Part shown: positions 41,629-58,834 of the stretch, one piece after another
How the letters are laid out: each line of letters opens with the position of its first letter
How positions within the stretch are numbered: position 1 is the stretch's first letter
Source: an uncultured Planctomycetales bacterium
GTDB taxonomy: Bacteria > Omnitrophota > Gorgyraeia > Zapsychrales > JBDRMG01
Reading direction: 5' to 3'
NCBI GenBank assembly: GCA_964478715.1
Contig: CAYZIY010000006.1
Location: 23,186-87,185, forward strand
DNA: 64,000 nucleotides
The notes under the pieces: generated by a model
Databases searched by the model: none
What the model was told of the DNA's origin: nothing
What the model saw: the letters and a program-made list of their open reading frames with translations, nothing else
Translations under genes and position numbers: made by a program

Positions 41629-43425
41629 CTAATTTTTCTTTATGCACTTTTGGTAATCGAAAGGAATGTTGGGCTGGGATTGTGGAAATATTTGCAGGAG
41701 CATCTTGACGTGTCTTTCAGCTTCTTGGCATCGGGCCTCTCGGGAGTAAAGGCCGATTAAGCGATAATGAGCATCGACACTTTGAGGGGCAAAATGAAGC
41801 ACCTCATGAAATAATCGGATAGCCTCCTCGGTGTTCTCCATTTTCTCAAAGGCAAAAGCCAGGTTGTAGAGCACATCCACATCAAAGGGATTGATCCGCA
41901 AAGCTTTATTGTAAGTCAAGGCGGCATTTTTAAGGTCACCCGTGTTAAGATAAAGATTGCCGAGATTGTAAAGGACATTGGTGTCATTTGGTTGAAGACG
42001 TAGAGCATTGAGATAGCTTTCTCTGGCCTGATCCATCTCTCCCCGACGAGAATGAATCGGACCGGATTTGGAGAATGTAAGGAACTCAACGATCTTGGGA
42101 TTTAATTTCACGGGCTTACAGATGGCGAAAACGACGGCAACCCCCAGCAGGCTTGCCGAAAAAGCTTCCCATTTTTTCTTTATCAACATATCAAAAAGAA
42201 AAACAATAGCCGCGCTTTCAAAAATAATCAAAAACGGCAAGATGCTGATCCGGTGTCTGAGAATCAAAAAATAGATGAGAGTAAAAATCAATTGACTTAA
42301 AATCAGAAAGACGATCAGCCAGGCTTTGGGATTCTTTTTAAGGCCAATGATCATCCCCAGAAGCGCTAACGGTAAAATTATGCGAAAACCGTTGTGATCA
42401 AGTTTTTTCTTCCACTGTCTTTGAAAGATCAAATCCAGGTCATAGGTAGCCTGATGATCAATGAAAAAAAGCTTGAGCTTGTTAACAATCAAATCAAAAT
42501 ACCGTTGGGGATTTTCGCGGATAAAATCCACGGCTAGATTTTGCCAATAGGCGGACACCTCTGAGGGCTTGAGCTCTTTGCGGAGCCTGGATTCGGCGAT
42601 GATGCGCGGATCATCCACATGTCCCTGGTGAAAGGGCCTTAAAAACATTGGATTGTTAAATGTGCCTGTGGATTGAGGATTATTGCCGATATAAAAATTA
42701 ATGCCGCTATGGGCGCTTAAAAAAACAAAATCATTCCCCAATTTATAGTTGCGATAGGAAACGGATGCCAGCACAAGTAAAAGTCCCAGAGCGCATAATG
42801 CTAAGCGTTTTGCGATAGCTCGCGCAGATCGGCGTTTGCGAAAAAGAATAAAACAAAATGAAAACATAACGAAAATAAGAAATTTACCGTCGGCGAGAGC
42901 ACCTGATCCCAGAAAAAGACCCAGCAGGAACCAGCGCAAAAAACGGGAATGTTCATCCAAATAGAGGAAGCCGCAAATGACGACACAGCTTAAAAAGATG
43001 ATCAAGGGAACCGGCATCAGGAGCCAGTCATAATAAATCAGCGGAAAGCTCAGCGCGGTTAAAATACCGGAAAGGACAGCCACTTTTTGGCCAAAGAGAC
43101 GTTTGGCAATGACATAGATGAATATTACATTGACCGAACCGAGGACGAGGTGAAATCCGCGAATCAGCTCAATATTATCGCCGAGAAGGCGCATCAAAAA
43201 GGCCAGGAAATACGGATAAAGCGGCATGCCATGGAAGGCGCGTTTAGCCAGACCGGTTTGGGCAATGATCTGGCGGGCCCAGTCCTGATAAAAAAGGACA
43301 TCACTGCTGGGATCATCGATAAAGAAATAGTGAGCCTGCAGGAAAGCGCTGTAAGTAAAGCGCACAGCCAGGGAAACCATAAACAGGATGGCCAGAAAGA
43401 AAATTTCTTTACGATTTGCGTTCAT
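41629..43425 (-). CDS. GT-C fold (ArnT/PMT-like, GT39/GT83-type) membrane glycosyltransferase with C-terminal TPR repeats
   Basis: First-loop motif FIDDPSSDVLFYQDWA and about 11 TM helices. The C-terminal 170 aa are TPRs (VLYNLGNLYLNTGDLKNA...). Confidence 0.6.
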   Translation of the reverse strand: MNANRKEIFFLAILFMVSLAVRFTYSAFLQAHYFFIDDPSSDVLFYQDWARQIIAQTGLAKRAFHGMPLYPYFLAFLMRLLGDNIELIRGFHLVLGSVNVIFIYVIAKRLFGQKVAVLSGILTALSFPLIYYDWLLMPVPLIIFLSCVVICGFLYLDEHSRFLRWFLLGLFLGSGALADGKFLIFVMFSFCFILFRKRRSARAIAKRLALCALGLLLVLASVSYRNYKLGNDFVFLSAHSGINFYIGNNPQSTGTFNNPMFLRPFHQGHVDDPRIIAESRLRKELKPSEVSAYWQNLAVDFIRENPQRYFDLIVNKLKLFFIDHQATYDLDLIFQRQWKKKLDHNGFRIILPLALLGMIIGLKKNPKAWLIVFLILSQLIFTLIYFLILRHRISILPFLIIFESAAIVFLFDMLIKKKWEAFSASLLGVAVVFAICKPVKLNPKIVEFLTFSKSGPIHSRRGEMDQARESYLNALRLQPNDTNVLYNLGNLYLNTGDLKNAALTYNKALRINPFDVDVLYNLAFAFEKMENTEEAIRLFHEVLHFAPQSVDAHYRLIGLYSREARCQEAERHVKMLLQIFPQSQPNIPFDYQKCIKKN

Positions 43426-44155
43426 GAAGCATTTGGGAGATCAGCGCCACCGAAATGATCGCTGCGGTATCGACTTTGAGAGTTGTGGGGCCCAGAGTAA
43501 CCGGTTCGCATTTATGCTTGAAGGCCAATTCCAACTCGTCTTTAGTAAAATCGCCTTCGGGTCCTACAAAGATAATAATCCGCTTAAAAGAATAATTTTT
43601 CTTAAGCAGGTTAGCTATGGTCTTTTGCTTCTCGGATAAAACCGCGATTAAAGCCAGATGGCCGTTGTTATTGATTAATTCAAGGGCTTTGGGGAAAAGC
43701 ACGGGATCTTTGATTTCCGGAACGGTTTTTCGCTGACATTGTTTGGCCGCATTAATTGCGATTGCTTGATAGCGCTGCTTTTTTTTGCGCGCCCTCTCTC
43801 CTTTAAGATTCACTTCACTGCGTTTAGTCTGAAGCGGAATGATTTCATCGACACCGAGTTCCGTGCATTTTTCGATAATGGTTTCAAACTTCGCTCGTTT
43901 GGGAATCGCGCAGGCCAGGCAAATTGGGGGTCGATCAGGTATATTCCTTTGAAAGGCTTGGATTGTTAATTCAACGAGACTGTCAGAGAGCTGAGTGATT
44001 TGTGCTTGCCCCTGGCCCCCTTTTCTGTCAAAAATCTCTATATCATCTCCCTTTTTATGGCGCAAAACATTTTTTAGATGATGGATTTCCTTATGATCAG
44101 TTAATTTTATAAATTTTTGATCCGAGAATATTTGAGGGATGAAGAAACGGTGCAT
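43409..44155 (-). CDS. rsmE: 16S rRNA (uracil1498-N3)-methyltransferase
   Basis: MHRFFIP N-terminus and SPOUT C-terminal domain. Confidence 0.85.
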   Translation of the reverse strand: MHRFFIPQIFSDQKFIKLTDHKEIHHLKNVLRHKKGDDIEIFDRKGGQGQAQITQLSDSLVELTIQAFQRNIPDRPPICLACAIPKRAKFETIIEKCTELGVDEIIPLQTKRSEVNLKGERARKKKQRYQAIAINAAKQCQRKTVPEIKDPVLFPKALELINNNGHLALIAVLSEKQKTIANLLKKNYSFKRIIIFVGPEGDFTKDELELAFKHKCEPVTLGPTTLKVDTAAIISVALISQMLHERKS

Positions 44156-44165
44156 AATTATTTAA

Positions 44166-44238
44166 TGGACCGAGGGGGAGTCGAACCCCCGACCTCCTGA
44201 TTGCGAACCAGGCGTTCTCCCAGCTGAACTACCGGCCC
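44166..44238 (-). tRNA. tRNA-Ala (anticodon CGC)
   Basis: Manual fold. The reverse complement reads GGGCCGG-TA-GTTC-AGCTGGGA-GAAC-G-CCTGG-TTCGCAA-TCAGG-AGGTC-GGGGG-TTCGACT-CCCCC-TCGGTCC-A. G3:U70 identity pair and A73 are present; no CCA is encoded. Confidence 0.85.
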
Positions 44239-44332
44239 ATAATTTATTATTAGAAATCAAACTCAACTTTGAGGCTCCGAGTATATTGGAGAAAGCTTAT
44301 TTTAGCAAAGCTGAAAAATAATAACAAGGACG

Positions 44333-46192
44333 TTATAAATCTTTCGGATTACCAGGATTGCTTCGTTTTCCTTGAAGAATTTCGGATACAGCCCAATACG
44401 CGATATCTTTCGTATTTGATGATGGATTTATCGATATTGCCCGAAGAATAAGTTGAACACCTGCTCCGTGATAGCCCAGATCAATCAATAGGGCTCCCTC
44501 TTCCAAAAGATCATTGAAATGAAATGGAGGATTAAGCATGTCCTTTATCTTGGATCTGTCTCTGGAAAGTATATGCTGTTTTAGCAATTCGAGATCGCTC
44601 TCCTGAGTCTTAACGGCGGTCATCCTTGTTTCGTAATTTTGTGCTTTTTCAGGAAGATCGAAAGTATTCCTTCTCACAAAGATAACATTGGTCTTATTGA
44701 CGAATATAAGCTGCCAATCGGGATCGTGATTCAGATAGTCGATAAATTTCCATAGAAAATGCTTGGCGGTATCCAATAAAACGATATGCAGATTGTGAGT
44801 TTTCGAAAATTGCGGCCACAGTTCTTCATGTGAGATGATGACGTCATAATATTGATCCATGAAATTTTTATCAAGTTGACGACCATCCTTGACCGGTTTC
44901 AGATTGGGATAAGCAGACCACAAAAGATAGCCTCCGTAAACGTGAGAATTAAAGACGGGTCCGGAGATCTTGGTTTCCTTAAGGAACTCAACAGCCTCCC
45001 CAGGATTACCAAAATAGATTGCAGAGCTGTAGAAATTAACTACGCGTCCATCAAGGTAGAGTCTTTTAGTAAATTTGCGATATCCTTGAAAGGCTAAAAG
45101 AGAAATTAAAAGAATTATGTAAAAAGCCGGATGGCGCAGTATAGAAAAAATTTTCTTGTTCATAATTTTGAGGATAAAACTTTTCGAATTCTGGAAGGTT
45201 TCGGTAATGATGACGCATGAAATCAAACCGAAATACACAGATGCTCTTTTCGTATAAAGAAATAAAAATAAAGCAAACATAAAATGCAGAAGAAAAAGAA
45301 AGCGAAATTTCTTATTGATTGCAAGAGAAAAGATTACCAAGGCGATAGTCAGGTGAGCCCAGAGTCCGCTGAGTTTCAATAGATATAATGGAGGCCGAGC
45401 TTCAGCGATAATAAGACTGTATCGGCCATAATGAGAAAATCCGGGCTTAAGAAAGAATTTGAACCAATGCAACACCCCTTTTATTCCATGGGGGTTTATG
45501 CAAAAGGCTAAAAGCAGGAGAGTATAGATTGATATGTTTTGCGTGAGGCGTTTTATTATTCTTTGCTTCTCTGAATCACGAACAAATAATTGAACGAAAT
45601 CATGAAAGATGAAGACGACCCAAAGGAGATTTCCATAAACAAACGCACCGGGGTGGATGTTGTACCAGATAATACCGAGAACCGGAAGCCAAAGAATATG
45701 TTTAGACTGATCGTCTTTTTGGTGTTTCAATAATTGAGTAAAGAATATGATGATACAGGGAAAATTGATCAAAAGCGGACGCAAGAGGCATCGCAGCGAC
45801 AGAGGATAAGATAACAACAGGCAAATGACCAGTAAAAAATAAAAGGATATTTTTTTACGGTAAATAAGAAAAAATAATGCCATTACGCAAATCAAATAAA
45901 TCAATCTGAAAAGAATCAAGCCTTGTAAACCCGCGATACGATAGGTTCCGTAAAGCAAGACATCTCCCAGCCATTGATTATGGATCCAGGGTATTTCTTT
46001 TTCGTTGAATGAAAAGGGATCTACGAGGGGAATAGTTTTATTTTGAACAATCCACTCCCCTGTTTTAAGATGCCACCAGACATCATCGGTTTCAATTGGT
46101 TGATAGAATATCAGGGCAAGATAAGCGATGAATAAAACAAGGGCTGCAATCTGATATTTAGAATGGCATGAACTATGTGGTTTTTCTAACAA
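44333..46192 (-). CDS. Large polytopic membrane protein, GT-C-like (candidate glycosyltransferase) coupled to the pilin genes
   Basis: 619 aa with more than 12 predicted TM helices. First extracytoplasmic loop carries ETDDVWWHLKTGEW...WIHNQWLGD. The C-terminus is a soluble domain. The start is 3 nt after the upstream pilin stop. Confidence 0.45.
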   Translation of the reverse strand: MLEKPHSSCHSKYQIAALVLFIAYLALIFYQPIETDDVWWHLKTGEWIVQNKTIPLVDPFSFNEKEIPWIHNQWLGDVLLYGTYRIAGLQGLILFRLIYLICVMALFFLIYRKKISFYFLLVICLLLSYPLSLRCLLRPLLINFPCIIIFFTQLLKHQKDDQSKHILWLPVLGIIWYNIHPGAFVYGNLLWVVFIFHDFVQLFVRDSEKQRIIKRLTQNISIYTLLLLAFCINPHGIKGVLHWFKFFLKPGFSHYGRYSLIIAEARPPLYLLKLSGLWAHLTIALVIFSLAINKKFRFLFLLHFMFALFLFLYTKRASVYFGLISCVIITETFQNSKSFILKIMNKKIFSILRHPAFYIILLISLLAFQGYRKFTKRLYLDGRVVNFYSSAIYFGNPGEAVEFLKETKISGPVFNSHVYGGYLLWSAYPNLKPVKDGRQLDKNFMDQYYDVIISHEELWPQFSKTHNLHIVLLDTAKHFLWKFIDYLNHDPDWQLIFVNKTNVIFVRRNTFDLPEKAQNYETRMTAVKTQESDLELLKQHILSRDRSKIKDMLNPPFHFNDLLEEGALLIDLGYHGAGVQLILRAISINPSSNTKDIAYWAVSEILQGKRSNPGNPKDL

Positions 46193-46195
46193 AGC

Positions 46196-46906
46196 TTAAA
46201 AACTATGAAGTTGAGGGGTTGTTTGTGTGTGGATTTCGAATCTCGGGTTTGTTTGCTGATCAAGCGGTGTTTGACAGGGCTGGGTGTTGTCAAAGCAAGA
46301 ACGAAGCGTTAAGTCCAAATAAAAATCGCTGACAGCCGGATCGTCATTTCGTTCAAAACTGGTAACAAAACCACCAGCTTCAATGGCAGGGTCGAGAACC
46401 TGGCCCACAACCGGGGCCACGGCAGTGCATATTGTCCATCCGCCTCTGCATCGATGAATGTTCTGTCCTATTTGGGTATAGCAGGTGATCACGCCCAAAT
46501 ATTCTTCAAGGGGTACCTGTAACATGCAGGTATTCGAACACTGATCATTGGCGCCGCTATAGCCGCCGTCGTCACACTGTTCTCCAGCTACCAAATAGCC
46601 GTCTCCGCAAACTGCATCAGCAATAAGTTCCCGATAACGGCTGCGGATACAAAGAGTGGATGCGTCGGGCATGCGGATACCCAAATCATTCGCGTGTCCT
46701 GTGGCCATTTCGGCTCTTTTTGCGATTTCCATCATCAAGCCGGTTGTGCGGCTGGCAACCAGAGCATCACGGGATGCGCCTTGCTGCATTTGCCGCATGG
46801 AAGAATCTGTAACCACAATGCCGATGCCGACAATACCGGCAATGATAGCTACGATAAGCAGTTCGGTTAAAGATAACCCGTTTTTTATGAGCAGACTTTT
46901 TCTCAT
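46196..46906 (-). CDS. Type IV pilin-like protein with a Myxococcus-type cysteine-rich repeat
   Basis: Prepilin N-terminus KNG|LSLTELLIVAIIAGIVG (Glu at +5) and a C-terminal CGDGYLVAGEQCDDGGYSGANDQCSNTC repeat. Start taken at the internal Met (MRKSLL). Confidence 0.65.
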   Translation of the reverse strand: MRKSLLIKNGLSLTELLIVAIIAGIVGIGIVVTDSSMRQMQQGASRDALVASRTTGLMMEIAKRAEMATGHANDLGIRMPDASTLCIRSRYRELIADAVCGDGYLVAGEQCDDGGYSGANDQCSNTCMLQVPLEEYLGVITCYTQIGQNIHRCRGGWTICTAVAPVVGQVLDPAIEAGGFVTSFERNDDPAVSDFYLDLTLRSCFDNTQPCQTPLDQQTNPRFEIHTQTTPQLHSF

Positions 46907-46925
46907 GATTTCTTCCGGAACAAGG

Positions 46926-47321
46926 TCATTCTGTCCAGGTAATATTGAGCGTGATTTTGCGCAGGGCCTTAGGGTTTCCTCCGATAGCGATGTTCGTGCA
47001 TGTAATTTGAACATCTCCGTTAAAGTTACTTAGTTCAGCCGGAAGAGTTCCTGTCCATGATTGAGTGGTTCCCGGAGCCGGAGAGCATGTTAAAGGAAAT
47101 GATCCATCCCAGATGTCCTGATTGACTTTAGACCGCAGCTCTTCCAGTATCTGTTTGCCCAAATGAGCTGCAATGATATCGCGGTCAGAAACGCCTCCTT
47201 CCTGCCGTGTCGCGCGAAGAGCGGTAAAAGTGCCCACAACGGCTACAGAGAAAATCAGAGTCGAGACAAGGACCTCGGCCAAGGAAACGCCTCGAATATT
47301 ATTTCTTAATTTCTTTATCAT
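46926..47321 (-). CDS. Minor (pseudo)pilin, PilV/GspI-like
   Basis: N-terminus MIKKLRNNIRG|VSLAEVLVSTLIFSVAVVG with Glu at +5. Start taken at the internal Met. Confidence 0.6.
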   Translation of the reverse strand: MIKKLRNNIRGVSLAEVLVSTLIFSVAVVGTFTALRATRQEGGVSDRDIIAAHLGKQILEELRSKVNQDIWDGSFPLTCSPAPGTTQSWTGTLPAELSNFNGDVQITCTNIAIGGNPKALRKITLNITWTE

Positions 47322-47322
47322 T

Positions 47323-47757
47323 TTAATTGTAGGGGCAGGCACCGGTGGTGCACCGGGGGTTTATATTGCCTTCAACATCCAGATTATTTTCTGTAACGAT
47401 GATTCGGAAGCGGGATGTATCCGCCAGAGAAGGACTGGCTGCTTCGCAAATAAACATCATACTGTTTCCGCTGCATTCATATTCAACATTTGATTCCGGT
47501 AAAATATTGATATTTAAATTTGCGTTTATGGCTGCCACTCCTTGAGCTCCTCCATTTGGCCAGAATCCACCGAATTTGGCTCGATAAGCCATGTTGGCGC
47601 CGTGAATGATGACCAAATTATTGGTGGCCGTGCGGGCTGAAGCCAGCACCATGCTGCGTTGAAAATTTGGAATCGCCAGCCCGGCGATAATTCCCACAAT
47701 GATGACGACAACAAGGACTTCCGTTAATGTGTATGATTTATGGCTGGTATATTTCAT
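47323..47757 (-). CDS. Type IV pilin-like protein (paralog of the next gene)
   Basis: N-terminus MKYTSHKS|YTLTEVLVVVIIVGIIAGLAIP with Glu at +5, and C-terminal Cys pairs. Confidence 0.6.
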   Translation of the reverse strand: MKYTSHKSYTLTEVLVVVIIVGIIAGLAIPNFQRSMVLASARTATNNLVIIHGANMAYRAKFGGFWPNGGAQGVAAINANLNINILPESNVEYECSGNSMMFICEAASPSLADTSRFRIIVTENNLDVEGNINPRCTTGACPYN

Positions 47758-47766
47758 AATAAAATC

Positions 47767-48261
47767 CTAAGGACAAAAGCCTGAAGCAGAAATGCAGTTC
47801 GGATTTGTCGCGTCAAGAGGTTGATTGAGGTGAATATAGATTAAATAGGAATTACTAGGTTGAACTGTCGCGGGATTCATATTAGGACAAGTTCCTGTCG
47901 GGCGACAAACTCCGCAAATATGAATCTCTACCGGTACTCCTAGCCCTGTTGAACAGGCATATTGTTCATTATTATGAGGAATAATATTAAGATTGAGATC
48001 CGCATTAATTCCTTGAATATCTTTCTCAAAACCTGGTCCCCCAAAAGGAGGCCAGTATGTCTGCGTTTCTAATCTTCTAGCCTGTGCGGCCGCGTGGATC
48101 AAAAGGAGATTATCGATCGCCTGCCTGGCGTAAGAGCGTTCCCGCATTCTTGTTAAGTTGGGTAGGGCGAATGAAACCAGTACCCCGAGGATGACAAGAG
48201 TAACCAGTATTTCTGTCATCGTAAATCCGTTACGCGCATATTTTAAGGGACCTAAAAACAT
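47767..48261 (-). CDS. Type IV pilin-like protein (paralog of the previous gene)
   Basis: N-terminus MFLGPLKYARNG|FTMTEILVTLVILGVL with Glu at +5. Shares the LIH.A..A.R....YWPP/NGG...G..A.NA.LNLNI.P....Y.C block with the 47323-47757 pilin. Confidence 0.65.
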   Translation of the reverse strand: MFLGPLKYARNGFTMTEILVTLVILGVLVSFALPNLTRMRERSYARQAIDNLLLIHAAAQARRLETQTYWPPFGGPGFEKDIQGINADLNLNIIPHNNEQYACSTGLGVPVEIHICGVCRPTGTCPNMNPATVQPSNSYLIYIHLNQPLDATNPNCISASGFCP

Positions 48262-48275
48262 AATGATAATCTCAA

Positions 48276-48734
48276 TTAGAAACCAAGATCCCCGCATGGG
48301 GAGCCGGCTGCCATATCCCGGCATATAATTTTCCCGTTACTGCAGATCGTGAAACCGTAGTCATTCGTTCGCCGGTCAATGCTGGCGGCCTCAACTCCGC
48401 TGGGGCAGACACCCGGATTACCGGCATTGATGATATCCGGCGCCAAGAAATTACTTGAAGCCGCTTGATCGATATCTAAAGGCCAGCCGGCATTATCGCT
48501 GGAGTAGCTGTTATGGTCAAGGCGCCAGCGTTCTTGAGAGGCCAAGACGGCTTCAAGAATGCGGCGCCCTTCTTGTGCCCGCTGGCGTTCGATGATTTTT
48601 CCCATTTTCGGCAACATCAGGCCAGCGATTATTGCGGTCATCAAGATTACGACCAATAACTCTGTAAGCGAGTAGCCGCTTGAATATATTTTCTCAGAAA
48701 ATATATCACGGAAAACTCTAAAGGAATTAGTCAT
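48276..48734 (-). CDS. Type IV pilin-like protein
   Basis: N-terminus ...KIYSSG|YSLTELLVVILMTAIIAGLMLP with Glu at +5. Start codon uncertain; the ORF track gives 48782. Confidence 0.55.
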   Translation of the reverse strand: MTNSFRVFRDIFSEKIYSSGYSLTELLVVILMTAIIAGLMLPKMGKIIERQRAQEGRRILEAVLASQERWRLDHNSYSSDNAGWPLDIDQAASSNFLAPDIINAGNPGVCPSGVEAASIDRRTNDYGFTICSNGKIICRDMAAGSPCGDLGF

Positions 48735-49182
48735 CCAAGTTATCGAACTTGCCGTTACCTGCTTTCGCGCCATCTTCTTCAATTTCTATCCAGTCATCAT
48801 CATTGCCTGGTGTCGGTGTTCCGCTTCCGGCCAATCTCCGAGTAGCTCTAATTCTGAATGTGGTATCGGTATTATCCTCCGCAGTATAATTGAATAATCT
48901 TCTGGCTGGATCATTGGGATTTTCAACATCGCATCCTGGGCAAAGATTATCATTGTTTTCTGGATCTGCTGTTTCATCGAGGCAACTATTATAGGATCCT
49001 TTAACAAAATAACATCGCTGGAGTGACTGGCGCAACTCACCGAGTGTAGAGAGCGCTTCCATGGCGCGGGACTGCTCGATTGTGTTGGAAAAACGCGGAA
49101 TCGCCAAGCCGGCCAACACACCCATAATAATAATAACAATCAGAACCTCAAGAAGCGTAAAACCTTTTTTGGATAACATCAT
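48727..49182 (-). CDS. Type IV pilin (candidate major pilin, first in the pilin array)
   Basis: N-terminus MMLSKKG|FTLLEVLIVIIIMGVLAGLAIP (classic Gly-1/Phe+1/Glu+5), AAGGAGGA RBS upstream, and an acidic C-terminus. Confidence 0.65.
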   Translation of the reverse strand: MMLSKKGFTLLEVLIVIIIMGVLAGLAIPRFSNTIEQSRAMEALSTLGELRQSLQRCYFVKGSYNSCLDETADPENNDNLCPGCDVENPNDPARRLFNYTAEDNTDTTFRIRATRRLAGSGTPTPGNDDDWIEIEEDGAKAGNGKFDNLDD

Positions 49183-49297
49183 ACTTCCTCCTTCTTTTTC
49201 TTTATTCTTTATGGAATAATTCCAAAACATATTGACAATTCACTTTAATAGCATATTTTTCTTATCCGCACCCACCTCCTCTCGAGGATATATTTTT

Positions 49298-50527
49298 TTA
49301 AAGACTCGCGATATCAAATATTGGAAGATACATAGCTACAACGGCAATCAAGATAAACACACCCACTACGATGATCATCACCGGTTCGAAAATAGTCCCG
49401 AAGCGTTTTAAAAATGTCTCAACGGTTTTTTGATAAAATTCAGATACCTTGTTGAGCATTTTGCCCAGTTCACCGGTTTCCTCGCCGACCATAATCATTT
49501 GAACCGTCATCGGCAGGAAGAATCCGCTCTGGCCCATGGGCTCGGCGATCAATTTTCCTTCACGGACACTGCTTTTGATCTCTCCGATGGCTTTTTCGGC
49601 CGTTAAGTTATTCACCAGTTTTTGAGAAATATCCAAAGCGTAAAGGATGGGGACGCCGCTTTCAACCAGAATCGCCATTTGCGAAGTGAAGCGTTCAATC
49701 ACAAAAATCTTATAAATTTTGCCGAATTTCGGCAATAAAAACAGGATATTCTCAATATTACGCCGGCCGTTAAAAGTCAAAGTATATCGATGCCCTATAT
49801 AGAGTATAGCACCAAGACTGGCCAGTATCACGAGAAATCTGGTTCTAATGAGTTCAAAAAGACTAAGGAAAAAAAGCGTTAGTCCCGGCATATCCACATC
49901 AAAGGCGCCGTAAAGATCCTGAAACTTCGGGGCGATAACGATCGCAAAAAAGCAGATCGCCCCAAAAGCGAACAGGATGAGGAAAACAGGATAGATAACT
50001 GCCGAAACAACGGCCCGATTAAAAGCGTCTTGCTGCTCCAAATAGAATGCGAGTTTTTCAAGTACTTGCGGCATATTGCCCGAAGTTTCTCCCACTTCGC
50101 AAAGACTGACCCAGAATTGATTAAAAACTTTAGGATGTTTAGCAATGCTTGAGCTAAAAGAATTGCCGGCTTCTACCTCAAGGGCCACCTGAGTCAAGAC
50201 ATCAGCCAGCTGTTTGCTTTCGACCTGTTCGATAATGATCTTAAGACTGCGTAAAAGCGGAACGCCGGAATCCAGCATAGTAGCCATTTGATGGCAGAAA
50301 ATCAGTAAATCTTCAAGGCAGATACCACCGTGCGTGTAGGCTTTTCTATCGGCTCTTTTTTTGATTTGGGCCGATGGTGTGATGCCGGAAGAATAAGCCT
50401 CTATGGCAACAATATAGTATCCCTGATTTTGTAAACGCGTAATCAGAGTGTTTTCATCAGGGGCATCATCAGTTCCCTGAAGCGTTTTGCCTCCAACATC
50501 TTTGACTGTATAGGAATAACGTGGCAA
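49298..50527 (-). CDS. pilC: Type IV pilus assembly platform protein PilC (GspF family)
   Basis: Two T2SS-F domains and three TM helices, 409 aa. Confidence 0.9.
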   Translation of the reverse strand: MPRYSYTVKDVGGKTLQGTDDAPDENTLITRLQNQGYYIVAIEAYSSGITPSAQIKKRADRKAYTHGGICLEDLLIFCHQMATMLDSGVPLLRSLKIIIEQVESKQLADVLTQVALEVEAGNSFSSSIAKHPKVFNQFWVSLCEVGETSGNMPQVLEKLAFYLEQQDAFNRAVVSAVIYPVFLILFAFGAICFFAIVIAPKFQDLYGAFDVDMPGLTLFFLSLFELIRTRFLVILASLGAILYIGHRYTLTFNGRRNIENILFLLPKFGKIYKIFVIERFTSQMAILVESGVPILYALDISQKLVNNLTAEKAIGEIKSSVREGKLIAEPMGQSGFFLPMTVQMIMVGEETGELGKMLNKVSEFYQKTVETFLKRFGTIFEPVMIIVVGVFILIAVVAMYLPIFDIASL

Positions 50528-50543
50528 GCTTGACTCCTAAAGT

Positions 50544-52250
50544 TTAAATCGTTACACTTAAGATTTCTTCCAGACTCGTAATGCCTTCAGCTACTTTTTT
50601 CATGCCGTCTTCAAAAAGGGTAATCATGCCGTTTTTACGGGCCAGTTCTTTGATTTCCACATAGGAAGCCTGTTTGTAAATGATGCGGCGGATATCGTCA
50701 GTGATATTCAAAATTTCCGTGATAGCGACTCGCCCCTTGTAGCCGGTTTGGTTGCATTCTTCGCAGCCCTTAGGGCGATAAATAAGATCCGCATTGATTT
50801 TGATGTCAGAAAATTGCTGTTTTTCGGGCTCATAAGCCTCTTTACATTTTTCGCACAAGCAACGGGCCAGGCGCTGAGCAACAACCATGTTCAAGGAAGG
50901 CATCAGAAGATAGGGTTCGACTCCGATATCCAAAAGCCTTGTGATGGCCGACGATGCATCATTAGTGTGCAGTGTGCTTAGAACCATGTGGCCGGTTAAA
51001 GCGGCCCGTACGCAAATTTGAGCTGTTTCCAAATCGCGCACCTCACCGACCATCATAATATCCGGATCCTGACGCAGGAATGACCGCAAGGCTGAGGCAA
51101 AAGTTAAGCCGATTTCCGGCCGGACATTCACTTGATTCAGTCCGTTAATTTTAAACTCTACTGGATCTTCGATGGTCATGATATTCTTTTTCGGATCAAT
51201 CAGTTCTTTGAGGGCGGCATAAAGAGTTGTAGACTTGCCGCTTCCCGTAGGCCCTGTTACAAAAAAAAGTCCATAAGGAGATTTGATTGATTTTCTGATT
51301 TTCTCCAGAGATTTGGGATCAAATCCCAGGTGAGATAGCTGCAGAGGCGCTGCCTTTTGATCTAAAATTCGCATGACTACTTTTTCTCCCCAGACGGTGG
51401 GGACAGTTGAAATACGCAAGTCAACGGTACGGTCTTCGAGCCGTACCATGATGGCTCCATCCTGGGGCAGGCGCTTTTCGGCAATGTCCAGCTTGGCCAG
51501 GATCTTGATGCGAGAGACAATCGGCAGATGAAGGTGACGGGCCGGCGGCGGGATTTCATAAAGAACCCCGTCGATGCGATAGCGCAATGACAGACGATCT
51601 TTGGTCGGCTCCACGTGGATATCGCTTGCCCGCTCATCAATAGCCTGACGGATAATCAAATCTACCAGTTTGACCACCGGGGCTTCTTCGGCCCTGGCGA
51701 TCAGCTTGTCGAGGCTCAGCTCTGTTTCTGCTTCTCTGCTGAGGATGCTGGAGCGTTGCGTGGCCGATTCATAGGTACTTTGAACTGCTGCTCCGAGCAT
51801 AGAAGAATGACTTTCGCTATAGAATTCTTCTATCGAATGAATAATATCTGATTTTGTGGCCAGCACAAGATTGACTTCACATCCGGTTATTTTCTTCAGA
51901 TTATCCATCAAGAGCAGGTCCAATGGATCAAAAACAGCGCAGGTGAGCGAATTCAGATGGCGCGATAAGGGCAAAACCAGATTCTTCTGGGAAAATTCCT
52001 TGGAAATTAAATCTTCCAGGCCTTGATTGGGCTGAGGTTTGAGCAGTCCCCCTTGGCGTGAGGCATAAGGGATATTGAGCTGTTTAGCGAGAGCGGTAAT
52101 CATTTCGCTCTCCTTAATCATACCCAGGCGAATAAAGATTTCACCGATACGCCCGCCCTCTCTTTGCTGATGGGCAATGGCTTCTTTGAGTTGTTTTTCG
52201 GTAATGAGCTCTTGGGCTAATAATATTTCACCCAGTTTTTTATAAGTCAT
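50544..52250 (-). CDS. pilB: Type IV pilus assembly ATPase PilB (GspE family, with N-terminal T2SSE_N domain)
   Basis: N-terminal GSPII_E_N-like domain, Walker A GPTGSGKSTT, and a tetracysteine motif (CEKC...CEEC). Confidence 0.9.
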   Translation of the reverse strand: MTYKKLGEILLAQELITEKQLKEAIAHQQREGGRIGEIFIRLGMIKESEMITALAKQLNIPYASRQGGLLKPQPNQGLEDLISKEFSQKNLVLPLSRHLNSLTCAVFDPLDLLLMDNLKKITGCEVNLVLATKSDIIHSIEEFYSESHSSMLGAAVQSTYESATQRSSILSREAETELSLDKLIARAEEAPVVKLVDLIIRQAIDERASDIHVEPTKDRLSLRYRIDGVLYEIPPPARHLHLPIVSRIKILAKLDIAEKRLPQDGAIMVRLEDRTVDLRISTVPTVWGEKVVMRILDQKAAPLQLSHLGFDPKSLEKIRKSIKSPYGLFFVTGPTGSGKSTTLYAALKELIDPKKNIMTIEDPVEFKINGLNQVNVRPEIGLTFASALRSFLRQDPDIMMVGEVRDLETAQICVRAALTGHMVLSTLHTNDASSAITRLLDIGVEPYLLMPSLNMVVAQRLARCLCEKCKEAYEPEKQQFSDIKINADLIYRPKGCEECNQTGYKGRVAITEILNITDDIRRIIYKQASYVEIKELARKNGMITLFEDGMKKVAEGITSLEEILSVTI

Positions 52251-52256
52251 ATCAGT

Positions 52257-53756
52257 TCATCTCTCAAAGCGGTCTAAAGCGTTTTCAACAACAGATTCCC
52301 GGTGAAAGGAATATTGTTTCTTAAAAAAAGATTCCTGAGTCAGGAGTGCGGATTGGACAGACTTCATATCAGGCAGAATATGCGGTGTAATAAAAATAAC
52401 CAGTTCCCGTTTTGTCTTATTATCATCTTTATGCCTGAATGCCATTCCCAGAATTGGGATTTTAGAAAGAATAGGAATGCCCGTTCTTGTTTTTTCACTA
52501 TCGTCTCTCAGCAAACCTCCGATAACGATGGTTTGGTTATCCGGTACACGCAAGATGGATTTTGTTCCTCTTTCTTCCGCGTCTTTGAATGTCTGCCCTT
52601 GAAAAGTGCCGCCTGTGCGGGCTTCGATGACCCGGGGTTGAATCGCCATGGTAATTTCTCTGGTTTCTAAATTGGCTTGAGGCGTGACAGTGAGAAAAAC
52701 ACCTGTTTCGACACGTTCCGCTTCAACGGATAAAGTGGAAGATCCTTCCGAGGCCTGGGTAATCGTCTTAATTCCGATAGCTTCATCAGTTGAGATCATG
52801 ATTTCGGCGGTTTCATTATTGAGAGTGAGAATTCGCGGTCGAGCCAGATTTTTGGTATCCGTATGGGTTTTTAAAAATTGCAAGGTGGCCGTCAGCCCCG
52901 AGGCGTCGATGGTGCCGGACGTATAAGTTGAGCCGGTGACCGAGCCTTTACGGACAAGCTCATTTTGATCCCAGGGATAATAATGGGTACGGCTGCCACC
53001 GGTAAAAGAAAGCGGTGTCGCTCCCGGTTTAATCCCCATCAAATCGGCAATAGATTTGCTAATATCAAGCATCTCCACTTCGATCAATATCTGTGGAATC
53101 GGAACATCCAGTCGGGCGATGGTTTGCTCTATGGCCGGGAAACGGTCGGGATAATCGCTGACAATAAGACTGTTGGTTCGGGGATCTTCAACAACCTCTC
53201 CTTCATTCGATAATACTCTTTTTAAGGCTTCCTTAATGCCTTTATCTTCCGATCCCCCTCCGTCGCTTGAGGAGCTTTCCGATGAGTCCTCTTCGCCTTC
53301 CGCGCTTTCAATAGTAAAAGTATCTTTTATTTTCGAATTGGATACGCTGGAATGTTTGAGGCGGTAGACCCGGGTAGTTAGTTGGGTAGAGACCGGGCCA
53401 AGCGATTTGACAATAAAGATATTGCTATCAGATTGAAGCTCGTAGGTTAAGTTATTAGCCTTTAAAATACGGTTTAAGGCTTCCTCTACCGGGACTTTTT
53501 CGAAATAAAGGGTGACTTGTTTGCCTCGGATTTCATCGGCGGCAATGAAATTCATGCCGGATTGCTGGGAAAAGATCTTCAGTACATCCGAAAGCTCAGC
53601 GTCTTCAAAGTCCATCGAGATCGTTTTGTCGTACTGGGGATAAATAAAACGCTTTAAGATATCATCCTCAAAGGCCGAAGCCGAAAGGGTTGATATCACA
53701 AGGGCAACACTAACAGAAAAAATAACAGCGAATATTTTTTTCATGGCACTCCTCAC
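52257..53756 (-). CDS. pilQ: Secretin (PilQ/GspD family)
   Basis: Signal peptide, N0/secretin-N domains and the C-terminal secretin motif VPILSKIPILGMAF...ELVIFITPHIL. Confidence 0.85.
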   Translation of the reverse strand: MRSAMKKIFAVIFSVSVALVISTLSASAFEDDILKRFIYPQYDKTISMDFEDAELSDVLKIFSQQSGMNFIAADEIRGKQVTLYFEKVPVEEALNRILKANNLTYELQSDSNIFIVKSLGPVSTQLTTRVYRLKHSSVSNSKIKDTFTIESAEGEEDSSESSSSDGGGSEDKGIKEALKRVLSNEGEVVEDPRTNSLIVSDYPDRFPAIEQTIARLDVPIPQILIEVEMLDISKSIADLMGIKPGATPLSFTGGSRTHYYPWDQNELVRKGSVTGSTYTSGTIDASGLTATLQFLKTHTDTKNLARPRILTLNNETAEIMISTDEAIGIKTITQASEGSSTLSVEAERVETGVFLTVTPQANLETREITMAIQPRVIEARTGGTFQGQTFKDAEERGTKSILRVPDNQTIVIGGLLRDDSEKTRTGIPILSKIPILGMAFRHKDDNKTKRELVIFITPHILPDMKSVQSALLTQESFFKKQYSFHRESVVENALDRFER

Positions 53757-53768
53757 TTTATATTCTAT

Positions 53769-54143
53769 TTATAATTTATCGATTTTGAATTCTTTTCCCA
53801 TAAATCTGATCGAGATGCCCGTTGGTGAAATATCAAGGATTTCGGCTTGATCGATGGAATCTCCGATGCTGACAACCTCATCATTGACAATGGCTTGAGG
53901 CTTTTTCGTGTCCCAAATGAGACCGCTAATCGTCAAGGATGGGGGTATAATTTCTTCGGGAATTTCTTTTCGAATTTTAGTTTTGGGAGTAACTTTCTCC
54001 GTTGTCTCAATCGGCTTCGGCTTCTTGGGCAATTGCGAAACAAAAGGATTCTGAAATCTCAGATCCCTCCTTTCAAGAGCACAAGCCAAATGTGTTTGAC
54101 CGAAGAAGAGAAGACAGCTTAAGAAAGTGATGAATATCCTCAT
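53769..54143 (-). CDS. PilP-like periplasmic pilus assembly protein
   Basis: Signal peptide, Pro/Lys-rich linker and a C-terminal beta-domain (GLIWDTKKPQAIVNDEVVSIGDSI...). Position between pilO and pilQ. Confidence 0.5.
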   Translation of the reverse strand: MRIFITFLSCLLFFGQTHLACALERRDLRFQNPFVSQLPKKPKPIETTEKVTPKTKIRKEIPEEIIPPSLTISGLIWDTKKPQAIVNDEVVSIGDSIDQAEILDISPTGISIRFMGKEFKIDKL

Positions 54144-54754
54144 GGTTGTCCTTCCTTGAAATTGATGGCAACGATATTAATGTTAGCTGTTATCTTATCT
54201 TCGCCTGGGGGATCTGTAAAAGAAAAATAACTGCTTCTTCTGGTAGATGAGCTTCCCATTTCAAAATTGTCGACTCTCAAATTTATGTTGGCGTTTTCCA
54301 GATCATAAATGAAATAACCGATCTGCTCATACGAATCAGCTCGGACCACCAGTTGCATCTGGATCGGATAAAAAAATTCGGTCTCGCGGGATCTTTGGGG
54401 TGTGTAATCAGAAATTTGAATATTGTTAGCGGTAGCCAGCTGGTTGATCTTCCCGATCAAATCATCCACTGTTTCCGGCCCCTGTGGCAGAGATGTTCTG
54501 ATGCTATTCAGGTCCTTTTCGGTCGCGTTCATTTTTTTAACAGCTTTTTCTTTTTGTGATAATTCATTGATTTCTTGTATTAAGGTTTCTTTTTCCTTTT
54601 GGATGTATCCGGATATTTTCATTGCCATAAATAAAACGGCCAGAATGATAACGATATTGGCCAAGATGTCTTTGCGCATTTTCAGCTGATTGATGATCTT
54701 ATTGATATCAATGTCTTTAATATCGTATTCTTTAAGATCCTGGAAAGTGAGCAT
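54140..54754 (-). CDS. PilO-like inner-membrane pilus alignment protein
   Basis: Short cytoplasmic N-terminus, one TM helix, a coiled coil, then a periplasmic domain. Position between pilMN and pilP. Confidence 0.55.
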   Translation of the reverse strand: MLTFQDLKEYDIKDIDINKIINQLKMRKDILANIVIILAVLFMAMKISGYIQKEKETLIQEINELSQKEKAVKKMNATEKDLNSIRTSLPQGPETVDDLIGKINQLATANNIQISDYTPQRSRETEFFYPIQMQLVVRADSYEQIGYFIYDLENANINLRVDNFEMGSSSTRRSSYFSFTDPPGEDKITANINIVAINFKEGQP

Positions 54755-56296
54755 TTATTCGCACCTGATTTCAAAATGGGTTGACACGATATCATCTTCC
54801 TGGTTTTTGCGAACCGAGACCAAAACAATATTATCAAATTCAGCAGAAAATTCTTTGTTACGCCGCAGGGAATCGACGAATTCATTGATCACTTCCACCT
54901 GGCGTGATGAGTTTTTGTCATAAACCTGTCCTTGCAGAGAAACCACGGGGGATATTATGTTTGCGTTTTGATCCGTTTGGGATCTGGCGCGTTTTTCTCT
55001 CATTTCAATTTTCATATTATTGAGCCAAGCCCCTTTCGGAAGAAGCTGGGGGATCATGTTCAAATAAAAGGCGGTGTGCGTTTTTACCGGAACACTCTTA
55101 TAACCGTTGATTTTTCTTTCTAGTTCGATTTGCTTGCTTTGAATATCGCGGATTTTCAAGGCTTCCAATGGCGTTATTTGCTGGATAATACTCTGCTTGC
55201 GCTTCCTGACTTCATTTAATTCTCTATTTTGCCAGCTATAAAATATGCCAAGCAGAACAGCGCAAGCGACAGCGATCTTGATGGTGAGCTGAAAATCTAC
55301 CGGTGCCCATTCGACAGGGGCTTCCTTTTTTTTGGGTCTTCGCTCTCTTTCGGATAGATCGACTTTAAAAGGAAGCGGAATTTCTTGGCGCAAAGTTATA
55401 CCCATTGCCTGGAGACAACCCAGATCAATGCCCTGCTTCGATTCAAATAAACCTTGAGAACTGACAGCGGTTGTTTTGACACCAAGCGCTGTTTCAAGAT
55501 CTCCGGTTCGGCTTTGATTGATATCATCTGTAAGGAATAGAATCTCATCGACCTTTGCTTGAGAATGTTGACGGCGATAGTAGTCGAGCGATATTCTGAT
55601 TTCGTTTATCAGGTTGGTTTTTAGCGCGGCCTGGTCAGCGCTCAGGCTGCTTTGATCGGAAGAAAGCTTAAAATCTCTGATGAATTGTGGGGATTCGGAG
55701 TCGATAATCATAAGACTCCCAAACAGATTATTGAGCTGCAAAACAGCAGAAGTTTTTTTGGGTTGGATGATTTTCTTAGACCGCAGAAGTCTTAAAAGAC
55801 CGATGGGCGCCGGTTCGATGAATCCGACATCCAAGCCAGACTGCTCGATCAGTTCCCGGTATTTCCTGACAATCTCCTTGCGGACAGCAATGAAAAGAAT
55901 TCTGATGCGTCGGTTTTTGTTTTCTTTGACGGTTTGGGTGTGATAGCTGAATAATAATTCATCGAGTTTAAAAGGAATATAGCGACGCACTTCAAATTCG
56001 ACGACTCCTTTGACTTCTGAGCTGGTCATCCAGGGGATGTAGAAAGATCTCAGAATTATTTCATGACTAGGCAAAGCCAATAAGACATCTTGGTTTTGGA
56101 CTTCGTGATCTCTGAGGCATCGTTGGATGATTGCAGCTAATTTGATGTCATCGTCAATATTTTGAATGGAAGGCTGCTGCGTATTATCGAAAAGGCTATG
56201 TGGAGCCGAAAAGCAAAAAAGGCATTCTTTCTTTTGAGTCTGAACCATATTCAACGAATTGATTCCGAAATAGATACCGAGTTTCTTTTTATTCAT
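54755..56296 (-). CDS. Fused PilM (actin-like ATPase fold) and PilN (TM plus periplasmic domain) protein
   Basis: 513 aa. N-terminal 330 aa are PilM-like. Then a TM helix (IKIAVACAVLLGIFYSW) and a PilN-like coiled-coil/periplasmic region. Confidence 0.7.
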   Translation of the reverse strand: MNKKKLGIYFGINSLNMVQTQKKECLFCFSAPHSLFDNTQQPSIQNIDDDIKLAAIIQRCLRDHEVQNQDVLLALPSHEIILRSFYIPWMTSSEVKGVVEFEVRRYIPFKLDELLFSYHTQTVKENKNRRIRILFIAVRKEIVRKYRELIEQSGLDVGFIEPAPIGLLRLLRSKKIIQPKKTSAVLQLNNLFGSLMIIDSESPQFIRDFKLSSDQSSLSADQAALKTNLINEIRISLDYYRRQHSQAKVDEILFLTDDINQSRTGDLETALGVKTTAVSSQGLFESKQGIDLGCLQAMGITLRQEIPLPFKVDLSERERRPKKKEAPVEWAPVDFQLTIKIAVACAVLLGIFYSWQNRELNEVRKRKQSIIQQITPLEALKIRDIQSKQIELERKINGYKSVPVKTHTAFYLNMIPQLLPKGAWLNNMKIEMREKRARSQTDQNANIISPVVSLQGQVYDKNSSRQVEVINEFVDSLRRNKEFSAEFDNIVLVSVRKNQEDDIVSTHFEIRCE

Positions 56297-56335
56297 TATA
56301 GTGTAAAGAATGGTTCATCATTTAGTATAAGCGAT

Positions 56336-56527
56336 TTAAGAGCGTGCTTTACGGGCTCTCGAGCGCAGCCAACGATCAATTTCTTTCTTATCGAATCTCC
56401 AGACGCCTCCGATCTTGATCCCCGAGATCTTTCTTTGATTGAGCCAATTGTAAATGGTTTGCTTCTGGAGCTTTAGGTAGTTTGCCAGCTCATCGACATC
56501 CATTAAGCTGTTAAGTCCACGCGGCAC
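56336..56527 (-). CDS. Small HTH_17/excisionase-family DNA-binding protein at the head of the pilMN-Q-B-C-pilin gene string
   Basis: VDELANYLKLQKQTIYNWLNQRKISGIKIGGVWRFDKKEIDRWL. Ends 40 nt upstream of pilMN. Start is GTG at 56527 or the internal ATG (MDVDEL). Confidence 0.6.
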   Translation of the reverse strand: MPRGLNSLMDVDELANYLKLQKQTIYNWLNQRKISGIKIGGVWRFDKKEIDRWLRSRARKARS

Positions 56528-56591
56528 AGGAAATATCTTCCTTTCTGGAAGTACGGTTCTTTGATTAGAATTAGTTAACCTTCTATTTTTT

Positions 56592-56620
56592 ATTACACTA
56601 TAATAAACTTACTTGGTCAA
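56592..56620 (-). promoter_or_regulatory. Putative sigma70-type promoter for the HTH-pil operon
   Basis: In an AT-rich 186-nt gap, minus strand: TTGACC, a 17-nt spacer, then TGTAAT. Weak call. Confidence 0.3.
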
Positions 56621-56713
56621 TTATAAAGTTCCCTATTTTTCAAAATGGTCAAATTTTGGAAAAATGAAAATACTTCTCGAAGCGGATTTTGGCTGGAGTC
56701 AAGCGAAGGAATC

Positions 56714-57052: not shown

Positions 57053-57278
57053 TTCCTTTATAATGAATATAGCTGAGACAGTGAGGGCATTGGATGATTT
57101 CATCGCCGTAAGTCATTTCAAAAAAAAGTGTACAATACGGACATTGTTTGTGGTTCGATCGATACTGCTCACATCTTTTTTCCTCTCTATAAGTATAATT
57201 GATCCAGGCGGCAGCAGCAAGCACAATCGCGATAAAGACAAGCAAAGCAATGGCTTGGGAGAATTCGATTTCGATCAT
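57024..57278 (-). CDS. Small membrane protein with a zinc-ribbon motif (CPYC...CPHC)
   Basis: MIEIEFSQAIALLVFIAIVLAAAAW...CPYC..(15 aa)..CPHC. Its ATG overlaps the TGA of the upstream TonB-like gene (ATGA). Confidence 0.45.
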   Translation of the reverse strand: MIEIEFSQAIALLVFIAIVLAAAAWINYTYREEKRCEQYRSNHKQCPYCTLFFEMTYGDEIIQCPHCLSYIHYKGNEKHEDFRK

Positions 57279-57724: not shown

Positions 57725-57734
57725 AAGGCTATCC

Positions 57735-58819: not shown

Positions 58820-58834
58820 TGTTAGACCCCCCCG

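Follow-up and report, generated by a model that had tools for sequence, protein, structure and literature searches.

The gene, its predicted fold and its conserved residues

We analysed a window of 64,000 nucleotides (nt) from a contig (CAYZIY010000006.1) of an uncultured Omnitrophota bacterium. On its minus strand, genes for a type IV pilus machinery are followed by an array of six prepilin-type open reading frames (ORFs) and then by the gene under study here, the target gene, which encodes a large membrane protein (Table 1). In the ORF list of the window the target gene has a TTG start and encodes 619 aa. The last pilin-like ORF ends with CAT AGT TTT TAA (stop codon at 46196-46198); then comes GCT, and the target gene opens with TTG TTA GAA AAA. 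The gap is exactly 3 nt (TAA-GCT-TTG), as a preliminary description of the locus had noted. There was no in-frame ATG near the N-terminus, and in a 43-sequence alignment the N-termini of homologues line up with the TTG start. A promoter/terminator scan gave no terminator-like site between the last pilin and the target gene, its counts being at shuffle level and uninformative. Downstream of the target gene lie RsmE, a GT-C protein with PMT_2 and TPR domains, RecA, HtrA, RecX and AlaS. An exact look-up of the target protein sequence found it not on record. The GC content over the target gene (44001-46000) is 38.4%, compared with ~44% for the window.

We modelled the target protein with AlphaFold2 (mean pLDDT 87.3, pTM 0.88). 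The model and hydropathy give about 11 transmembrane (TM) helices plus loop helices, fewer than the 12 or more that had been described at first. They are followed by a periplasmic C-terminus of 225 residues, in which the soluble domain foreseen in the preliminary description takes the form of an alpha/beta domain and a set of helical hairpins. The acidic DD pair (D36/D37) lies between TM1 and TM2, in the first extracytoplasmic loop, where it had been placed before. Since the predicted cytoplasmic loops are rich in K/R and the DD loop is net acidic (7 D/E versus 3 K/R), we assign the N-terminus to the cytoplasm and the DD loop to the periplasm.

Foldseek searches with the model against the PDB yielded 23 matches at E≤1e-3, all of which were GT-C enzymes: STT3 subunits, DPY19, AglB, PglB, ArnT and AftA. 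The next match had E=0.046 and a probability of 0.2. Oligosaccharyltransferases (OSTs) and DPY19 matched strongly, and Emb enzymes weakly (E 0.1-0.5). A second model was made for the relative P0019, a Tad-linked protein of 491 aa that is 25% identical to the target (pLDDT 93.9). Compared with known structures, it scored 18.2 with STT3B, 16.6 with Pmt4, 16.5 with AglB, 16.4 with DPY19, 14.9 with ArnT, 14.3 with PglB and 10.2 with 3vu0. The best structural matches of the family are protein-modifying GT-C enzymes (STT3, AglB, DPY19, PMT). The comparison with GT-C structures that the preliminary description had proposed found a GT-C fold and excluded a transporter fold; together, fold and domain evidence ruled out assignment as a transporter, an O-antigen ligase/Wzy protein or a PMT_2 protein. 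Judging from the models, the family combines a GT-C(A) core with an OST-type periplasmic domain. We conclude that the target is very probably a GT-C glycosyltransferase.

Conservation was read from alignments of 56, 43 and 60 homologues with a mean identity of about 20%. Residues D37, G45, W176 and D436 were invariant in all three. R316 was invariant in alignments A2 (43 sequences) and A6 and at least 90% conserved in A1; P429 was invariant in A1-A3 and at least 90% conserved in A6. Conservation of at least 90% was also found for H41, P55, F60, W74, L75, G88, R138, P139, N178, H180, G187, P234, E264, G420 and R438. According to the model and the loop charges, the conserved polar residues of the membrane part are all on the periplasmic side. 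The active site of GT-C enzymes typically pairs an acidic residue after TM1 with basic residues for the lipid phosphate, and the conserved periplasmic residues of the target are the pattern expected of such a site. From their conservation, D37 is a putative catalytic base or metal ligand and R316 a candidate ligand for the phosphate of a lipid donor.

An unannotated family linked to pilus and donor genes

Searches of Pfam and NCBIfam gave no match to the target even at E≤1, and scans of 56 and 43 homologues returned only TPR repeats, in fused relatives. Sequence and profile searches of the PDB found only TPR proteins or noise. Relatives are numerous, and they bear out that the 619-aa polytopic protein of the preliminary description is the product of a real gene. 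A word-indexed search listed 78 homologues (best E=1e-107), the closest of those named being from Candidatus Omnitrophota. A profile search of 1.84 billion cluster representatives gave 45,282 matches at E≤1e-3 and 23,056 at E≤1e-30. Scanning one genome per species for the motifs, with a 10-sequence alignment, detected at least 572 loci in Omnitrophota, Acidobacteriota, Nitrospirota, Desulfobacterota, Planctomycetota, Verrucomicrobiota, Chloroflexota, Elusimicrobiota, Gemmatimonadota and others. By these sequence criteria, the target belongs to a separate, very large family that is matched by no library searched (Pfam, NCBIfam). Of the 78 listed homologues, 19 have Pfam TPR repeats at the C-terminus, as do 13-14 of the 56 that were scanned; the target itself has no Pfam TPR match. 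Tandem arrays of two to four family paralogues are common (L019, L023, L039, L068, L099, L090), which suggests several acceptor or donor specificities in one organism. No further paralogue was found within the window.

To describe the gene neighbourhoods of the family, ORFs were called in 85 loci; family members were recognised by profile, pilus machinery by phmmer and pilins by class-III signal motifs. Grouping at 45% identity sorts the family genes of these loci into 33 lineages. The five nearest relatives share 28-34% identity with the target, and all of them adjoin pilins or belong to the same pilus cluster (P0002 to P0006; Table 1). In P0006, the gene lies at the opposite end of the cluster that the target terminates (window 44333-63846): it has moved, yet was kept with pilus genes. 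Over all lineages, a pilin motif was present within 1 kb of the family gene in 7/33 and within 2 kb in 8/33, and a pilin or pilus machinery within 10 kb in 20/33. Overall there were about 0.5 pilin motifs per 10 kb; for the first kilobase alone the figure was 1.06 per 10 kb. Exact look-ups showed pilus linkage in eight of 11 cases. Homologues are therefore linked to pilins among both the five closest and more distant relatives in other phyla, as the reading of the target as a pilin-modifying enzyme would demand.

In at least seven phyla, the neighbours of relatives include either type IVa pilins or Flp pilins with Tad machinery. In Acidobacteriaceae the gene order is PAP2, family gene, Flp pilin, RcpC/CpaB, secretin, TadZ, TadA, TadB, TadC, and 12 of the 13 loci have the Flp motif on the same strand, 2-391 nt further downstream. 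In Desulfobacula, a GtrB-like GT2 gene is divergent from the family gene, Flp, prepilin peptidase, CpaB and secretin. The family gene is 113 nt from a Flp pilin in Anaerolinea and 149-512 nt from type IV pilins in Auribacterota and Omnitrophota; in Planctomycetia and Omnitrophota it is divergent from a PilM-pilins-PilC-PilB operon. The gene for P0019 is 1.5 kb from, and divergent to, Flp-Flp-TadZ-TadA-TadB-TadC-TadE, and that for P0017 is upstream of RcpC-secretin-TadZ/TadA. At the P0023 locus (L099), the order TadZ-TadA-TadB-TadC-GT2-methyltransferase-x-family-family runs on one strand. A Desulfobacterota cluster (L018) holds three pilins, Wzy_C, GT2, an AsnB-like protein and a family gene with TPR repeats.

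Some of these blocks have features of their own. In three Desulfobacterota loci (L018 at 5420-12295, L027, L075), a TPR-bearing family member comes after a Wzy_C protein, a GT2 and an asparagine-synthase-like amidotransferase, and in L018 the three pilin genes immediately precede this block; similar blocks occur in L046, L033, L050, L063 and L049. In the loci of Pyrinomonadaceae and Glassbacteria the upstream block differs: L046 has a sigma-54 activator, an M50-like peptidase and a 618-aa protein lacking a Pfam match. When the 119 immediate neighbours of the 33 lineages were pooled, they included five small multihaem cytochromes (Paired_CXXCH_1, Cytochrome_C7), not pilins, and one may ask whether the substrates include other secreted proteins of filament or redox type.

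In three-component periplasmic glycosylation, a GT2 makes an undecaprenyl phosphate (Und-P)-linked sugar, GtrA is the proposed flippase and a GT-C enzyme transfers the sugar (PMC11127046). Genes of this kind adjoin relatives of the target. By tblastn against plasmids, we found full-length family members labelled 'hypothetical protein' in Alpha- and Betaproteobacteria (family profile E 1e-86 to 1e-88). Cassettes with the order GT2, class I S-adenosylmethionine (SAM) methyltransferase, GtrA and, last, the family gene are present in Phyllobacterium (three plasmids), Pararhizobium and Sulfuricystis. A Rhizobium locus (L096) has methyltransferase-GtrA-family gene, and its gene table contains no GT2. 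Two Flp pilin genes directly precede the cassette of P. zundukense A18/3m. The surroundings of the plasmid cassettes are otherwise unrelated (arsenic/copper resistance genes, ABC transporters, conjugation genes), and the annotation of Rhizobium sp. RCAM05350 splits the family gene into two. Among the 33 lineages, 11 have a GT2 within 5 kb of the family gene; in six of the GT2-bearing loci it is of the GtrB-like form, with about 310-326 aa and C-terminal TM helices. No GtrA homologue was found in the metagenomic loci by jackhmmer, the sensitivity of which may be limiting. A cassette with GT2, methyltransferase and GtrA is, by analogy with such systems, a hallmark of lipid-phosphate-sugar donors. 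From these adjacent GT2 and GtrA genes, we infer that the family may use a polyprenyl-phosphate-linked sugar donor.

Table 1. Features of the target gene, the surrounding pilus genes and the loci of relatives. Positions are those of the window, except for loci of relatives, which have their own numbering.
Feature	Position	Strand	Basis or remark
Target gene, GT-C-fold membrane protein of unannotated family	44333-46192	-	ORF list, homologues, AlphaFold model, GT-C fold matches
Predicted transmembrane GT-C core, residues 1-377, ~11 TM, N-terminus cytoplasmic	45062-46192	-	Model DSSP, hydropathy, loop charge
TM1, residues 7-29			Model
First external loop, residues 30-73, amphipathic helix 38-51			Model
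Ten more TM helices, to about residue 377			Model
First periplasmic loop motif IETDDVWWHLKTGEWI, residues 33-48	46049-46096	-	D36/D37 at 46082-46087
R138-P139, periplasmic end of TM4	45776-45781	-	≥90% conserved
W176-x-N178-x-H180, periplasmic end of TM5	45653-45667	-	W176 invariant
Long periplasmic loop motif I-x-E-x-x-(S)P with E264	45389-45412	-	Alignments
R316, arginine at periplasmic helix end	45245-45247	-	Alignments
Predicted periplasmic alpha/beta domain, residues 395-512	44657-45010	-	Conserved motifs GGY 44927-44935, DGR 44879-44887
Predicted C-terminal helical-hairpin (degenerate TPR-like) tail, residues 515-607	44372-44650	-	Model
Array of six prepilin-type ORFs, proposed acceptors	46196-49230	-	ORF list, Pfam/NCBIfam, motifs
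Pilin-like ORFs of the array	48727-49230, 48276-48782, 47767-48324, 47323-47757, 46926-47342, 46196-47014	-	
Type IV pilus machinery	49298-56296	-	Pfam, translations, homologues in pilus clusters elsewhere
PilC	49298-50527	-	Named from translation and close homologues in pilus clusters of other loci
PilB	50544-52250	-	Named from translation and close homologues in pilus clusters of other loci
Secretin	52257-53756	-	Pfam
T2SSB-like	53769-54143	-	Pfam
PilO	54140-54754	-	Pfam
PilM/N fusion	54755-56296	-	Pfam
Relative P0002, locus L001			Synteny with window: pilin, gene, RsmE, PMT_2-TPR, RecA, HtrA, RecX, AlaS; pilin 85 nt upstream
Relative P0003, locus L003			Closes same-strand block opening with pilin 7 kb upstream, two TPR proteins inside
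Relative P0004, locus L086			Pilin 1.1 kb upstream
Relative P0005, locus L087			Pilin 440 nt downstream, then PilM-like gene
Relative P0006, loci L004/L005	10001-11887		Gene between UvrA and TPR-ExbB-ExbD-...-PilM-PilO-secretin-PilB cluster
Plasmid cassette, L089	6705-10365		
Plasmid cassette, L090	5150-10488		
Plasmid cassette, L092	5698-9353		
Plasmid cassette, L094	2763-6422		
Plasmid cassette, L095	2723-6365		
Plasmid cassette, L096	3882-6352		

In all six ORFs of the pilin array, a hydrophobic helix comes after a prepilin-type cleavage/methylation motif. The true start of the last one (46196-47014) is probably Met37, because the ORF as called overlaps the preceding pilin by 89 nt. Its mature form has 226 aa and 10 cysteines, with a DUF4215 / myxococcal Cys-rich acidic repeat, and may act as an adhesin at the tip or as a minor pilin of large size. 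At L001 (125-441), the pilin beside P0002 is called as two overlapping ORFs, apparently the halves of an orthologue of the window pilin 48727-49230; a frameshift or an assembly error may have split it.

PilM and PilN are apparently fused into a single ORF of 513 aa in the window and likewise in L004, L007 and L010. Upstream of the fusion there are two ORFs without Pfam match, ExbD, ExbB, an 846-aa TPR protein and UvrA. An ExbB/ExbD pair with a TPR (YfiO-like) protein of ~820-850 aa stands directly before the pilus assembly genes both in the window (57735-61375, minus strand) and in L004 (11920-15462). It is unusual for a type IV pilus operon to keep a proton-motive-force-driven ExbBD module at its head. 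The genome carries several TPR-bearing GT-C proteins: further genes of the PMT_2 type with C-terminal TPR were found two genes downstream of the target (41629-43425, minus strand) and at 9037-10752 (minus strand). A membrane protein with TPR and RDD domains is encoded at 10772-12451 (minus strand).

Proposed role in pilin glycosylation and rival explanations

We somewhat favour the view that the target is an inner-membrane GT-C(A) glycosyltransferase with a periplasmic active site that acts on pilins. In the mechanism we propose, a cytoplasmic GT2 encoded elsewhere in the genome would make an Und-P sugar, which would then be flipped across the membrane. The donor would be held by the conserved basic/polar ring of R138, N178, H180 and R316, and D37 of loop 1, helped by E264 of the long loop, would activate the acceptor or hold a metal ion. 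The protein substrate would be held by the TPR-like tail and by the alpha/beta domain with GGY and DGR, a domain similar to the one that binds the acceptor in AglB/PglB. The target gene would be co-transcribed with and translationally coupled to the six pilin genes, and one or more pilins would be modified at the membrane before assembly.

The candidate pilin glycosyltransferase of the preliminary description gains support from the GT-C fold and the recurrent pilin linkage. As to the acceptors, we infer them from gene linkage: because the target gene is coupled to six pilin genes and relatives lie beside pilins in many phyla, pilins are the most likely ones, and we give this assignment slight preference. 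The modification would probably be O-linked, since no sequon logic was apparent.

Several observations weigh against pilins as acceptors. The preliminary description had suggested looking for Ser/Thr-rich patches; none of the six pilins is unusually rich in Ser/Thr, and they share no sequon. N-x-S/T sequons in these pilins and in adjacent Flp pilins likewise gave no consistent signal. Pilus genes were absent within 8-10 kb in 13/33 lineages and 3/11 exact look-ups (none nearby for P0014, P0009 and P0020), the neighbours in these cases being TPR proteins, YfhO, other glycosyltransferases, multihaem cytochromes or a giant NHL protein. The enrichment of pilin motifs rests on an estimated background of 0.03-0.1 motifs per 10 kb, which assumes that a typical genome has 10-40 genes of this sort. 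Neither a GT2 nor a GtrA gene was found in the 64-kb window. Pilin genes are listed near only one of the six cassette-bearing plasmid loci, and classical Gtr cassettes modify O-antigen, not protein (PMC11127046). Finally, Tad pili of Caulobacter show no glycan density (PMC10710030), so that Flp glycosylation would not be general.

The pilus-free lineages, the plasmid cassettes that mostly lack a listed pilin nearby and the pilins without a clear glycosylation signature would also fit an active GT-C enzyme with a different acceptor. This could be a lipopolysaccharide or O-antigen-like glycan, an exopolysaccharide, peptidoglycan, a lipid, or a broad set of periplasmic or surface proteins, and the proximity to pilus genes would then reflect co-regulation of surface structures. 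The cassette of GT2, methyltransferase and GtrA-family protein is laid out like the Gtr seroconversion systems that modify O-antigen (PMC11127046), several lineages pair the family with YfhO, PMT_2-TPR, GT4/GT87, Wzy_C and AsnB-like proteins, or cytochromes, and the genome carries further GT-C-TPR genes. However, two pilin classes are linked to the family in at least seven phyla, often on the same strand and at a distance of 2-400 nt, and the P0006 gene stayed with pilus genes when it shifted to the other end of the cluster. Moreover, the best structural matches are protein-modifying enzymes, the C-terminal domain is of the AglB type, and TPR fusions are typical of protein-binding GT-C enzymes. 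We therefore regard a non-pilin acceptor as possible but doubtful.

The structural matches to STT3B and AglB might also point to a true oligosaccharyltransferase of the PglB/AglB/STT3 type, which would transfer a glycan en bloc from undecaprenyl pyrophosphate (Und-PP) to a pilin asparagine. In keeping with this, in hhalign E264 falls on the glutamate of TIXE, R316 on the region of R375 and GGY/KVFIDGR on WWDYG/KTLVDGG, and in an Acidobacteriaceae locus a gene for a PAP2 phosphatase precedes the family gene. We nevertheless consider such an activity improbable: there is no STT3 Pfam match, no WWD and no conserved second DXD/E, the hhalign probability is only 8-39%, the adjacent Flp and type IV pilins have no shared N-x-S/T sequon, and neighbouring GT2/GtrA genes suggest single sugars on a monophosphate carrier. 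A GT-C-like scaffold that has lost catalysis and helps pili to assemble, for instance as an inner-membrane chaperone or docking site for pilins, would explain the tight linkage to the pilus operon and a window without donor-synthesis genes; non-enzymatic pilin accessory proteins such as TfpY do exist (PMC11841053). Invariant acidic and basic residues at GT-C catalytic and donor-binding positions across very distant members, the recurrent co-occurrence with GT2 and GtrA donor genes and the many members without nearby pilus genes make this very improbable.

Should the target and its relatives glycosylate pilins, tens of thousands of 'hypothetical proteins' would gain a function. Tad and type IVa pili would then share a modification system, with possible effects on adhesion, resistance to phages and the attachment of ultrasmall bacteria to hosts, and glycoengineering would have a new protein glycosyltransferase scaffold with its own donor cassette. 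Only tentatively, we suggest that the family is a divergent sister of STT3/AglB/PglB that kept the OST-type acceptor domain, lost WWD and DXD, and ancestrally decorates type IVa and Flp/Tad pilins with single (possibly methylated) Und-P sugars. If so, OST-like pilin glycosylation would be common in Omnitrophota, Acidobacteriota, Desulfobacterota, Nitrospirota, Chloroflexota, Planctomycetota and Proteobacteria.

Comparison with known systems

Enzymes that glycosylate pilins have been described in a few pathogens (TfpO/PglL, TfpW) and in archaea (AglB). To our knowledge, there is no known counterpart acting on Flp/Tad pilins or on pili in uncultured phyla, Omnitrophota among them, and our literature search found neither a pilus-linked GT-C family of this kind nor a Flp-glycosylating enzyme.

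TfpW of P. aeruginosa group IV strains (AAM52060.1) is a GT-C pilin D-arabinofuranosyltransferase. It is encoded directly downstream of pilA and has 11 TM helices, an essential DDX in periplasmic loop 1, a periplasmic TPR domain and an Emb-like proline motif, YX6PFX7P, in periplasmic loop 4 (bioRxiv 10.1101/2020.04.19.049825). The target resembles it in following a pilin gene, in its ~11 TM helices and in having D36-D37-V38 in loop 1; its tail is only TPR-like. A regular-expression search for YX6PFX7P found no match in the target, and no genes of a D-arabinofuranose (D-Araf) pathway were seen. Compared by motifs and description only, TfpW would be the closest functional analogue. The pilin O-oligosaccharyltransferases TfpO/PilO, PglL, PglS and TfpM share with the target the position of their genes beside pilins; they modify pilins with sugars in the periplasm, the activity proposed for the target. 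The TfpO/PglL group consists of Wzy_C proteins of the GT-C(B) type, a different family and structural subclass, and Pfam detected no Wzy_C in the target. As both are present in one Desulfobacterota pilin cluster (L018), Wzy_C enzymes and the family do not appear to be interchangeable. The analogy with TfpW and TfpO drawn in the preliminary description thus stands for the position after a pilin and for DDX, and falls short for the TfpW proline motif and Wzy_C; a relationship is not demonstrable.

Hallmarks of OSTs are an external-loop Asp, DXD/E, WWD, DK/MXXI and a pyrophosphate-binding Arg, and the WWD(YG) of the C-terminal domain binds the +2 Ser/Thr (PMC7226087). The target shares with STT3/AglB/PglB (GT66) a structural match over 390-460 residues, an acidic residue in the first external loop and a predicted C-terminal periplasmic alpha/beta domain of the OST (AglB) type. 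The STT3 family of Pfam (PF02516), which true PglB proteins do match, gave no match in the target or 56 homologues. Where hhalign puts WWDYG, the family has GGY(L/I)W, with no Asp and no double Trp. At the place of the PglB DXD/E (D154/D156), its loops have no conserved acidic pair but R138-P139 and W176-x-N178-x-H180. OSTs also differ in having 13 TM helices versus about 11 in the target, and in using an Und-PP-oligosaccharide donor, whereas the neighbours of the family suggest an Und-P-monosaccharide. Because WWD and the second acidic motif are missing, we do not assign the family to GT66.

The order of the motifs was also compared with that of C. jejuni PglB, the sequence of which was validated (99% identical to P0219; PDB PglB chains at E ~1e-265). 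Aligned with this single sequence by hhalign at a probability of 8%, the family profile placed I-x-E-x-x-SP on TIQE, R316 at most two residues from the GLRF arginine (PglB R375) and GGYLIW...KVFIDGR on WWDYG...KTLVDGG. With a 15-sequence PglB profile, the 43-sequence profile (A2) reached a probability of 38.8%, which was not significant and covered the E264-R316 segment. The collinearity of these sequence motifs is suggestive, and too weak to claim homology.

From the protein O-mannosyltransferases PMT/TMTC and the C-mannosyltransferase DPY19 (GT39, GT105, GT98), the target differs in its loop motifs. Nor does it group by Pfam with PMT_2/ArnT-like enzymes (GT39/GT83): PMT and PMT_2 gave no match to it at E≤1, whereas PMT_2 matches the neighbouring genes 41629-43425 and 9037-10752. 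Three-component systems (GtrA, GtrB and a GT-C enzyme such as GtrC or GT136) come near in another respect: relatives of the target close equivalent cassettes on proteobacterial plasmids and, lacking GtrA, in the Tad operon of L099, with the same lipid-monophosphate-donor logic. In contrast to these systems, the family has an OST-like C-terminal domain and often TPR repeats, and the window is without GT2/GtrA. Taken together, pilin-linked GT-C glycosyltransferases are known as a kind, and what is new here is a distinct, very large, unannotated pilin-linked GT-C family with an OST-like architecture.

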